DNA of 64,000 bases, from the NCBI GenBank assembly GCA_041913845.1, contig JAYSEN010000010.1:25707-89706 (forward strand), in the 5' to 3' direction. Positions 48,902-51,900 of this stretch are shown here, piece by piece. The number at the start of each line of letters is the position of its first letter. The stretch's first letter is position 1. The translations under genes were made by a program, and so were the position numbers. A model generated the notes under the pieces. It saw only the letters and a program-made list of their open reading frames with translations. It was not told the DNA's origin and did not search any database. Source of the DNA: Undibacterium sp. GTDB taxonomy: Bacteria > Pseudomonadota > Gammaproteobacteria > Burkholderiales > Burkholderiaceae_D.

Positions 48902-51900
48902 GGTTTAACGATGCCACTAGCACCTTCGCCAAGAATCTGGGACAGCAACTAAGACCGGATTCGGTCGAAATAGATGGTCGCGATCTACGTGATCAACTGG
49001 CATTTGTCGCACAATTTTCGCGTCTGGTGTTGTATTACAATCCGCAGAATCAGCAACAAGGTGACTGGCAAGACTTTTTTTTAAAAGACCCGGCTATCTT
49101 ACTCGCGGCGATCAGTAAGACCGATTATGCGCATTACCACGCCCAATATTTGCAACTCAAACAGCAAATCCCTGAGCACACTTTGCCAGACAGCGATTGC
49201 CTGAACCGTTTGTGCATGTTGCTACAAAAAATGTTTGCGAGCTTAAATTTGTGGTTGCGGAATATGCGTAAGCATCACCATAAATTCGATTTGCTGAGTT
49301 TTTTAAGTCAAAAAATACAAACGCAACTGGCATTGCAATTAAATTTATTTGTCCTGATACAGCAAGCCTTAAAGCTCAAAACTTATCCTGAGCTGGTAGT
49401 GCTGGATCTCGCCAGCTTAAGTTTATTTGAGCGCGAGTGGCAATTAAGCACAGGACAGGGTAGCGCACTCGAGCCAGTACACAGTGAGATACAGATAGCT
49501 GAGTTGATACGGCAACTGGCCGGAGTGTTTGAGCAATGCTTTGATGTCATGGTGCAGGTCTGTGATCAGGCCGGGCGAGACTTTTATAAGTTGGAGCAAG
49601 AGCATTGCGACTTTCCCGATACAGCCTTATTGCGTGCCTGTTTGCGCTTGCTGGAGCAACAGCGCCAGATCAACAATAATTTGAGTCAGGCACATCTGCA
49701 ATTTTATTATCGGGATATTTTGCATACCCAACCAGCACCAGCTGAACTGGATCAGGCCTTATTACGTTTGACGCTGAATCCACAAGTTGCCAGCTACGTG
49801 TTACCGGCCAATAGTCAGTTTATTGCAGGCAGCTACGCCGATAAAAGCCCGGTAGTATTTGTTAATCAGGATGCCGCTTATTTAAATCAAATTCAGATCG
49901 CAGCGCTCTACACCGAGTTATTTCGACCACAAATTTTGGCCGCAGATACCACGTGCTACAGTGCCTGGCAATTTTCGCGTATCGAATTGAGCGATCAGGT
50001 GCGAACAAATGACCTGGCCGAAGTTATTGATTTTCCTTGCTGGGGCAATCGTGATGCTGAGTCCGTTCCTTTGGTGCTGGCGCTGGCGTCGCCCATGCTG
50101 GCCCTGGCACAAGCGCAGCGTCGCATACGATTGGAATTTGACTGGCTTCAGGATTTCGATGCCAGCACACTCTTTACACAAGCTGGCTTTTATCTGAGTG
50201 TTGCGGATAGCTGGCAAAACGTGACTGCATATCTGAGTCAGGCAGATCGAAGCGGTTTTCAACTCGACTTACCGTCCAGTGTCGCCGCGATTACTGCGTT
50301 TAGTGCTGGCAGCAAGCAGGCCAGCAGCACCTGGCCTATGTTAAAAATCGTCTTTGCGAATCACACGGACATGTCGATAGTCCGGAAATTTACGCGATTA
50401 AAGCTGGAAACTCAGGTGACTGGCATGACGCAATTCACGTTAGCCAATGACTTAGCAACGCTCGCTTCGAGTCAGACTTCACCCTTATTCGCAGCCCCGG
50501 CAGCAGCGGGCGCGAATTTTTACGTGCATGCGCCCGAGTGTTTTGGCAAACCCTTAGTTTATCTGACGCTAACGCTCAACTGGGATAAGCTGCCAGCTTG
50601 TCTTTCGACTTATTACGCCAGCTATAACTACTACCTGGCAGGTTTCCCCAAGCAGTTGCAAGCAGCCGACTATGTGATGCGCAATTCTGCTTATACGGTG
50701 CGTTGTGAGGTCAGACAAGGTGATAGCTGGCGCGACTGGAGTGCGCACTGCGCCAGCCTGGCAGGCCCGCCGAACGCGAGCTATTGCATTATGCCGGGTA
50801 CGCAAAATGAATTAGGCTTGTTTGCCACCACCCGACCCGCGCCAGCTCAGCAAGACCAGGATAAGCAAGTTGATTATGAAAATTTGCCAGCCAGTCAGAT
50901 TAGTTTGATTAGCCCCGCCGACTTTCAGGCACAAGCCGATTTAATCCAGCCCGCCGTAGCGCCACCAGCTATGCCCGCTGCGGCACACCTGCGCCTGAGC
51001 TTAGTCGGCCCAGCCCAGGGTTTCGGTGCCAGCCTTTATCCAGAACTGGTTTCTGCGCTGAGCTTGAAAAATGCCCAGGTCTTAATTCAGCAGGCTAAGG
51101 CAGGTTTGCTAAGTTGGCTCGCAGAAGTGCTGATCAAGGGCTTAAATAAATTAATGACTGGCTTTAAAAAGGTACTTGGCGTAGTTGTCGCGCTGATTAA
51201 AATTTTGCTGGCTTTTATCCGCCGCTTGTTTTTTGGCACACAAAACTTACACGATGAAACTGACGAGGCTGACGCAGATAATCCATCATGTTGTACAGCG
51301 CAAGCTTTATCATCCCTGTGTGATGAAAAGGGTTTGTTTAAGTTACCTGCGACGCCATTGCTTCCTGGCTATTCGAGTGTCACGCTGGATTATCTGGCGC
51401 GCTATACCTGGCAATCAAGCGCCACGCAGCAAAATCAGAAGCTCAGCGATAATTCTGACTATCCCTTTGAGTTGTTTCACTGGCGACCTGGCGGTTGGCA
51501 ACGACTCAATAGCGAAGCGCAAAACGCGCAGCTAAATGCACCATCAGCCTTGGATTTAATTGCACAGCCTGAGTTCACTAATGCCTGCTACCTTGCTTTA
51601 AGCAACCTGGTTTTACCCAGCCGATTACGCGTGGGCTTTGAAATCAGTCGCTTGCAGGATGCCCCCGGCGATACAGAATTGCAACTCGTATCGTATTTAC
51701 TGACACAACCGCAAAAGACGGCCGTGACGATATGGCGCGATGAAACCAATGGCTTGCGTCAAAGCGGCCTGATCGAATTTGATTTACCAGCACTGGATGC
51801 GGCCTCTGAATTCGTTGCCACAACCGATAACACAGTTTGGCTCGTGCTGGTCGCACCGCAAGCGCAGACGGAATTACGTCTGGCTTATCTGGGTACACAA

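Follow-up and report, generated by a model that had tools for sequence, protein, structure and literature searches.

The 64,000-nucleotide stretch of Undibacterium sp. DNA analysed here (the window, to which all nucleotide positions refer) carries on its plus strand a gene cluster for a contractile injection system (CIS) (41368..63450), delimited by Pfam matches, by the gene calls on an identical Logan contig and by shared synteny. This report deals with a 45-residue segment (51103-51237) of the baseplate protein Cis11 encoded in this cluster, and with the possibility that it touches a lipid membrane. The cluster has the order cap (Pvc16_N), a 276-residue unknown protein, sheath, two tube genes, Cis6 (DUF5908) and Cis7, followed by VgrG, PAAR, gp25, Cis11, Cis12, the tape measure, a 588-residue fibre-like protein and two unknowns of 284 and 278 residues. 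This synteny is common to Pseudomonas sp. MWU13-2105, Massilia and one metagenome locus (L006); the search for related loci, made with a 6-sequence alignment, returned four. The VgrG-like spike and the PAAR tip (46377..48468, +) are identified by the Pfam families Phage_base_V, Phage_GPD and PAAR_motif, and the gp6/gp7-like wedge partner Cis12 (52787..55387, +) by its phmmer matches in the PDB to All3315 (2.2e-48) and Alg12 (4.2e-38).

Cis11 itself (48898..52800, +; 1300 residues, whose numbering is used throughout) is encoded between gp25-like Cis9 and Cis12 in the sheath-tube-VgrG-PAAR cluster. Its best matches in the PDB, found with phmmer and by profile, are All3317 (7b5h, 7.4e-150), Alg11 (7aeb, 4.8e-147) and SalCis11 (1.3e-112), and PlPVC1 (9QGL), Pvc11 and Afp11 were matched as well. 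The AlphaFold2 (AF2) monomer model of residues 101-1300 has a mean predicted local distance difference test score (pLDDT) of 85.8 and a predicted template modelling score of 0.70, and with this model Foldseek ranks 7b5h_AH (5.6e-56), 9qgl_A and 7aeb_G (1.9e-50) at the top. Sequence and modelled fold thus agree with the initial annotation that the protein is an Afp11 homologue, the homology to solved Cis11 proteins extending over the core and the Baseplate_J-like C-terminal part. On both it is a Cis11/Afp11-type (gp6-like) wedge protein and belongs with the large ones that bear a cage. Residues 240-580 align by profile with Alg11 110-489, and the part from the loop described below and the motif behind it onward aligns with Alg11 570-1035. 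In the AlgoCIS particle domain IV of Alg11 (residues 278-643) forms the spike cage, and judged from this alignment the Undibacterium protein is one that carries a homologous large inserted domain. In solved relatives the cage encloses the VgrG spike and the PAAR tip (PMC8894135).

It should be noted that domain databases are of little help with these proteins. Cis11 has no match in Pfam-A or NCBIfam, and Pfam, NCBIfam and PHROGs together gave essentially none for Cis11, Cis12 or the four unknown genes of the cluster. A homologue search with residues 601-1000 alone was also empty, though HMMER against 1.84 billion representative proteins later gave 2905 Cis11 homologues. With 1300 residues the protein has the usual size for the caged clade, most of the best 150 homologues having 1200-1350. 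An identical Cis11 protein is encoded on an independent public assembly, and the segment is therefore not an assembly artefact; the DNA of this protein occurs in activated-sludge and wastewater metagenomes.

The segment lies in a loop between two motifs that are conserved throughout the family. Motif A (residues 693-733; 50974..51096, +), a strand and a helix directed toward the cage tip (…GFGASLYPELVSALSLKNAQVLIQQA) that were delineated with a motif hidden Markov model (HMM) and the AF2 model, ends ...SLYPELVSALSLKNAQVLIQQA, has the family consensus GYLRL.L..P..AFG.SLY.KVVS.VSL.NAQ.LI..AK and is conserved by the motif HMM in 148 of 151 sequences. Motif B (residues 813-836, LFKLPATPLLPGYSSVTLDYLARY; 51334..51405, +) has the consensus L..MPN.PY.PK...L..Y.A, was found in 147 of the 151 and aligns with Alg11 580-600 and All3317 762-781. 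What separates them, here called site 2 (residues 734-812; 51097..51333, +; placed by profile alignment), has a median length of 8 residues among 146 homologues, with at most 12 in 92 and more than 25 in 38 of them, the long ones being concentrated among the nearest relatives of the Undibacterium protein, which itself has 79. The proposal that the segment had been inserted between two motifs lying close together in homologues is borne out by these lengths: the 79-residue loop is a true insertion.

Where this insertion is situated on the particle can be estimated from the solved relative. The loop consensus together with motif B aligns, profile against PDB, with Alg11 570-ISKDTDPTIELLPNEPY-586, which includes Lys572, and in the published structure Lys572 is the tip of the AlgoCIS spike cage, in the so-called tip loop of domain IV (PMC8894135). 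From the two together we infer that the insertion is at the distal apex of the cage, beside PAAR and outside the baseplate core. Burial in the core, by which the initial annotation would have been refuted, is thus not indicated, and the low AF2 confidence of the segment points in the same direction. Nor was the segment found in structurally solved CIS, including the freely released extracellular ones (Afp, PVC, PlPVC1 and AlgoCIS): its helix is absent from every Cis11 of solved structure that was compared (All3317, Alg11, SalCis11, PlPVC1, Pvc11 and Afp11). At site 2, the loop of All3317 is non-helical and about 48 residues long, and that of SalCis11 is just KKHKK.

Positions 51103-51237 (+) translate, exactly as first written down, to GLLSWLAEVLIKGLNKLMTGFKKVLGVVVALIKILLAFIRRLFFG, which is residues 736-780 of Cis11, and TQNLHDETDEADADNPSCC comes directly after residue 780. 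The segment can be divided into an amphipathic Helix 1 (residues 736-757, GLLSWLAEVLIKGLNKLMTGFK; 51103..51168, +), recognized by its hydrophobic moment (muH) relative to shuffled sequences, and a very hydrophobic Helix 2 (residues 758-780, KVLGVVVALIKILLAFIRRLFFG; 51169..51237, +), recognized by hydropathy, by muH and in the AF2 model. In the model, the helix that begins at residue 714 runs into the insertion up to residue 752, and a second one follows at residues 762-778 (pLDDT about 50). Over residues 740-800 the pLDDT is 40-65, with values below 50 at residues 778-792; such low values for both insertion helices are as expected for an exposed flexible element.

At 100 degrees the muH of all 45 residues is 0.46, to be compared with 0.15 +/- 0.07 in shuffled sequences, none of 5000 shuffles reaching the observed value. 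For residues 737-757 it is 0.49 (p=0.012) and for residues 762-778 it is 0.59 (p=0.002); across the tests made on the segment, muH lay between 0.46 and 0.59 and p between <0.0002 and 0.03. The periodicity has its peak at 99-100 degrees (3.6 residues per turn), and Helix 2 is in phase with Helix 1, so that over the whole 45 residues the polar and basic residues all fall on a single helical face, namely S739, E743, K747, N750, K751, T754, K757, K758, K768, R775 and R776. A heptad coiled coil is ruled out by the same peak, since heptads have theirs at 102.9 degrees. The net charge of the helix (residues 736-780) is +6, and a HeliQuest-type D of 1.92 compares with a cutoff of 1.34. Of the description given initially, an amphipathic helix followed by a hydrophobic stretch of about 21 residues, the amphipathicity was thereby confirmed; the stretch is not an uninterrupted one, however, because K768, R775 and R776 lie inside V759-F779, and these three share one face of Helix 2.

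The hydropathy of the segment is nevertheless considerable. With a Kyte-Doolittle 19-residue window of at least 1.6 taken as the threshold for a transmembrane helix, the only windows in Cis11 that reach it are those of residues 752-781, with a maximum of 2.24. The same scan revealed no segment of this grade in the other proteins of the cluster, Cis12 and the fibre-like protein included, with the sole exception of a mis-called GTG extension of the cap. In the latter case the mechanically called open reading frame (ORF) of the Pvc16-like cap begins at a GTG, which adds a hydrophobic N-terminus (41278-41367; Kyte-Doolittle value 2.26); on the identical public contig the gene was called from 41368 onward, and the extension is probably not translated.

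Behind the helix the chain returns to the cage through an acidic linker (residues 781-797, net charge about -7) and a small Cys motif (residues 798-812), the two together at 51238..51333 (+) and distinguished by charge and by Cys conservation. Residues 781-812 have a net charge of -7, and it may be speculated that this linker masks the basic stripe of the +6 helix before membrane contact. The Cys motif at the return end of the loop (51289-51333) reads CC-x8-C followed by D-[DE]-x-G and is a possible disulfide or metal site. A lipobox at LSSLC was considered and rejected, the consensus being wrong and a signal peptide absent.

Two orthologues, P0001 (59% identical) and P0002 (42% identical), have an ungapped 79-residue site-2 loop of like character, in which the identity to the Undibacterium loop is 46% and 32%, respectively. 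All three proteins share Cys799 and Cys808, and P0002 has Ile in place of Cys798. The amphipathic periodicity is kept too: the peak muH is 0.47 in the Undibacterium protein, 0.56 in P0001 and 0.64 in P0002, in each case at 99-100 degrees. What is not kept is the hydrophobicity of transmembrane grade. The maximum of the 19-residue Kyte-Doolittle window is 1.83 in P0001 and 1.62 in P0002, in the latter located elsewhere in the loop, and the P0002 equivalent of the hydrophobic stretch is FFQVLIKLWEEFLDWLKRLW, which contains E, E and D.

The segment is not peculiar to this protein: by sequence criteria an analogous helix, in site 2 or in another loop of the cage, is predicted in about half of the 150 nearest representatives. 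The second position, site 1 (residues 582-594; 50641..50679, +), comes directly after a conserved YY..YN.YL motif and has only 13 residues in the Undibacterium protein; it is the alternative place of the helix in homologues from Bacteroidota. Site-1 loops are longer than 25 residues in 92 of 145 homologues and have helices rich in W, F and K, for example ...IPWWKKLWNWLKNLIRPK... and ...KIGNIFKNIIGFLLKIIKGLILLVASVFTFLGRFLKKII..., often in proteins with a short site-2 loop. Site-2 examples are ...SLLSRIWTSIKKFVAGIVAAFKKIGAAVAAVFKKIGAWFKKILGK... and ...LLTRLRKAFGRAVQALRRWVRRLLRR..., Lys/Arg-rich amphipathic helices that are followed by linkers rich in Pro, Ala, Ser, Asp and Glu. By a HeliQuest-type criterion, with a third loop, situated between the two sites, not scored, 52 homologues have a candidate helix in site 1 only, 23 in site 2 only and none in both. 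A stricter scan of the whole distal cage found it in site 1 only in 43, in site 2 only in 19 and in the third loop only in 5, and again no protein had it in both site 1 and site 2; the positives, 68 of 143, are 67 single-loop proteins and one with the third loop and site 2.

Among the named carriers, those with the helix in site 2 are all Proteobacteria (Massilia agilis, M. solisilvae, Pseudomonas fakonensis and one gammaproteobacterial metagenome-assembled genome) and those with it in site 1 are all Bacteroidota (Ferruginibacter, Sphingobacteriaceae, Flavobacterium and Crocinitomicaceae); in the databases their proteins are called hypothetical or baseplate J-like. The distal cage region of the homologues contains strong cationic amphipathic windows at 12 times the density of their other parts. 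When the maximum muH of each loop was compared with shuffles of that same loop, the mean z was 2.24 for the site-2 loops of 44 homologues (68% with p<=0.05) and 1.54 for the site-1 loops (47% with p<=0.05). In the helices of the family K is enriched 3.2-fold, W 2.8-fold, I 2.1-fold, R 2.0-fold and G 1.6-fold. The helices of the homologues cannot be aligned with each other, their length varies from about 20 to 175 residues and their location shifts among two or three loops, and what is kept is the cationic amphipathic character. Such drift in sequence, length and position at retained character favours a generic partner, such as a bilayer, over a specific protein interface.

We therefore consider that the segment may best be read as a cationic amphipathic helix of about 45 residues at the tip loop of the cage, which would act as a peripheral, in-plane lipid-binding finger. 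On the sequence evidence we would give this reading a probability of roughly 0.55. The segment has the features of a peripheral amphipathic helix as proposed for Cis12 of the thylakoid-anchored CIS (tCIS), namely a high muH with a segregated hydrophobic face, and a net positive polar face with interfacial residues (K, R, W). We infer its exposure at the apex, its binding to lipid and its coupling to cage opening, and the following sequence of events can be envisaged. The helix, which may have a kink at TGFKKVLG that folds it into a hairpin, would be present in six copies. These would extend outward at the distal apex of the particle, next to the PAAR tip, and the flexible acidic linker and the small Cys-containing motif would hold each of them to the cage. 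The broad hydrophobic face would be buried in one leaflet and the narrow Lys/Arg stripe would pair with anionic lipid head groups, whereby the cage apex could dock directly onto a membrane, either the cytoplasmic membrane of the producer, if the particle is anchored as in type VI secretion systems (T6SS), or the target membrane, if it is released. Lateral spreading of the six helices could in addition help the cage to open. The finger may thus have one or more of three roles: apex anchor to the inner membrane of the producer, contact with the target membrane, or trigger of cage opening.

Several points weigh against a lipid-binding finger. AF2 models the segment with little confidence (pLDDT 40-65); the placement at the apex is taken from a profile alignment and a published description; and the cages of tCIS, SalCIS and AlgoCIS work without such a helix. 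The best 19-residue window on the Wimley-White octanol scale is -6.3 kcal/mol, which is no better than that of two buried N-terminal helices. Under strict criteria only 68 of 143 homologues are positive, and at least one syntenic cluster (L006) shows only a weaker helix, in the third loop. Finally, a hydrophobic face of such breadth might instead be covered by PAAR, by a fibre protein or by its own copies in a six-fold helical bundle.

This last point leads to the explanation that survives best beside lipid binding, to which we assign something like one half of its weight or less. The six helices or hairpins could act as a protein-protein latch, bundling with each other or clamping PAAR, an effector or the 588-residue protein, and so keep the cage closed until firing without any contact to lipid. 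Six copies would meet at a narrow apex, the opening in AlgoCIS being 18 A wide (PMC8894135), the hydrophobic face is too broad for stability in water, and opening of the cage is a recognised step of firing. The constant loop length of 79 residues and the Cys motif kept in the three closest orthologues also suit a specific contact of this kind. It is more difficult to reconcile a latch with a helix that family-wide is unalignable, varies in length, moves between loops and keeps only its cationic amphipathic character, with a periodicity of 3.6 residues per turn rather than a heptad, or with a basic stripe and an enrichment in W, K, I and G that resemble interfacial membrane helices. The two readings are not incompatible, since helices bundled before firing could go on to insert into a membrane once firing has taken place.

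The initial annotation had called the segment membrane-helix-like, with a tether to the inner membrane or to target membranes in mind. A role at a membrane is still plausible; that V759-F779 is a true transmembrane helix, spanning the inner or a target membrane and anchoring the particle as Cis13 does in tCIS, appears unlikely. Hydropathy well above the threshold and unique in the cluster, the octanol value, the RR at the end of the hydrophobic stretch and the precedent of a transmembrane helix in Cis13 of a CIS all speak for a spanning helix. But K768, R775 and R776 fall within the 21 residues and extend the polar stripe formed by the helix before them, so that a charge-free apolar run of about 19 or more residues is lacking. 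Moreover, the ends of the loop rejoin the same soluble domain, and a single span would presumably leave the acidic linker beyond the membrane, there being neither a second hydrophobic segment nor a signal peptide. The acidic residues in the P0002 equivalent are hardly compatible with a span either, and most members of the family have Lys/Trp-rich helices that are clearly not transmembrane. The segment therefore probably does not span the membrane, and an amphipathic helix or hairpin, in-plane or monotopic, describes it better. Least probable of all is a neutral expansion of a tolerant surface loop by low-complexity drift, without a role of its own. It would suit the great variability of the loop in length and in sequence, the 2-12 residues that many homologues have there and the low confidence of the model. 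Against it, the 45 residues stay in amphipathic phase in orthologues whose loops are 32-46% identical to this one, 47-68% of the loops beat their own shuffles when 5% are expected to, the cationic windows are enriched 12-fold, and no protein has the helix in both site 1 and site 2.

If the amphipathic helix is indeed a lipid-binding finger, the question arises which membrane it meets. An anchored mode is favoured by the lack of another membrane protein in the cluster, of an Afp15-type ATPase and of a lysis gene, and by the very long tape measure. An Afp15-type AAA+ ATPase was not found among the ORFs of the window scanned (10177-63450; about ten ORFs in 1-9320 were outside the scan), nor in the clusters and 10-kb flanks of the syntenic loci L001, L003 and L006, and no lysis gene is recognisable. 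The tape-measure ORF (55323-59831, +) encodes about 1490-1500 residues, of which the CIS_TMP domain covers only the last 400 or so; this implies that the tail is very long or that the N-terminal 1100 or so residues are an uncharacterised part.

A released mode is perhaps favoured by the conserved 588-residue fibre-like protein (59900..61666, +), a fibre or foot candidate in which a 245-residue antiparallel coiled coil is followed by FN3-like beta-sandwich domains. Its AF2 model (pLDDT 77.8) has three long helices in residues 2-244 and then the FN3-like beta-sandwiches. The protein is conserved in all the syntenic clusters, and many of its 97 homologues align only over the N-terminal 55-75% or so, with a C-terminus that varies as in receptor-binding fibres. 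Foldseek gave only generic FN3 and coiled-coil matches for it and no solved CIS fibre, and a sequence search of the PDB was empty. That the cluster keeps such a protein contradicts the suggestion that the segment would tether the particle in place of fibres.

A more far-reaching generalization is possible, for which we see distinctly less support than for the finger itself: cationic amphipathic helices of the Cis11 cage might be a general, overlooked lipid-contact element of caged CIS, a membrane sensor that on insertion would pull the cage open and license firing, and might also explain the contacts made by cages of the T6SSiv type. If this were true, one could tell from the presence or position of the helix how CIS clusters not yet characterised are likely to act, and fibre-independent membrane contact could possibly be of use in re-engineering CIS as delivery devices. 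Recurring in two phyla, such fingers at the cage apex would offer a concrete hypothesis, open to mutational test, for how these particles are anchored and how they are triggered. It is already known that CIS are tethered to membranes by baseplate extensions or by accessory membrane proteins. New here, as far as can be judged from sequence, would be the carrier (Cis11), the place (the tip loop of the cage) and the recurrence in two phyla in alternative loops; full-text literature searches found no paper in which an amphipathic or hydrophobic helix is connected with Cis11 or with the spike cage.

Some further observations on the window may be added. Four conserved genes of the cluster without a match in Pfam, NCBIfam or PHROGs lie at 39843-40910, 41931-42761, 61690-62544 and 62614-63450 and encode proteins of about 330, 276, 284 and 278 residues. 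The 276-residue protein, the only one of the four for which a PDB sequence search was made, had no match there, and the 284- and 278-residue proteins are not paralogues of each other. Elsewhere in the window, the dihydrolipoamide dehydrogenase (E3) of a pyruvate dehydrogenase operon (27713-29839, +; 708 residues) has two N-terminal lipoyl domains.

Elements comparable with the proposed finger are found in other systems. In membrane targeting of the MinD/FtsA type a cationic amphipathic helix sits on a flexible tether and its function tolerates sequence drift, as appears to hold for the helix in Cis11; the MinD helix has only some 10-15 residues, however, and the Cis11 helix, with 45, is far more hydrophobic. 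The tail knob protein gp9 of phage phi29 brings six copies of a hydrophobic, membrane-active loop to the distal end of the tail, but these loops lie inside the lumen of the tube and are proposed to form a pore, unlike what is suggested here. No homology is known between the Cis11 helix and the elements of MinD/FtsA or phi29 gp9.

Among CIS, the thylakoid-anchored system of Anabaena (7B5H) contains the closest solved relatives of both the Undibacterium Cis11 (All3317) and Cis12 (All3315). It is also the precedent for a CIS held at a membrane by amphipathic or transmembrane helices in extensions of its baseplate, having a putative amphipathic helix in an extension of Cis12 and a C-terminal transmembrane helix in Cis13. 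There the membrane elements belong to Cis12 and Cis13 at the baseplate's periphery, whereas the element described here belongs to Cis11 at the predicted central apex. Contacts of the cage itself are known from tomograms, in which the Cis11 cage touches the cytoplasmic membrane in T6SSiv of Amoebophilus, in the T6SS of Aureispira and in the haloarchaeal T6SS, and the molecular basis of which has been stated to be unknown. A lipid-binding helix at the cage tip is a candidate explanation for these contacts. These systems differ in possessing additional feet, or else dedicated membrane proteins (Hbor_38620 and, in SalCIS, SalCis20), homologues of which are not evident here; accessory membrane proteins tether CIS in SalCIS, Streptomyces and haloarchaea.

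The most direct comparison is with AlgoCIS, since Alg11 is a homologous protein encoded at the same gene position, the insertion falls into the aligned tip loop and both proteins place positive charge at the apex. The AlgoCIS cage is proposed to bind carbohydrate via its carbohydrate-binding modules rather than lipid, and the work on AlgoCIS points to a second binding event, at the cage, as a requirement for its opening ahead of firing. In Alg11 the loop has about 12 residues with a single Lys and no helix, whereas in the Undibacterium protein the loop of 79 residues would bear an amphipathic helix of 45.

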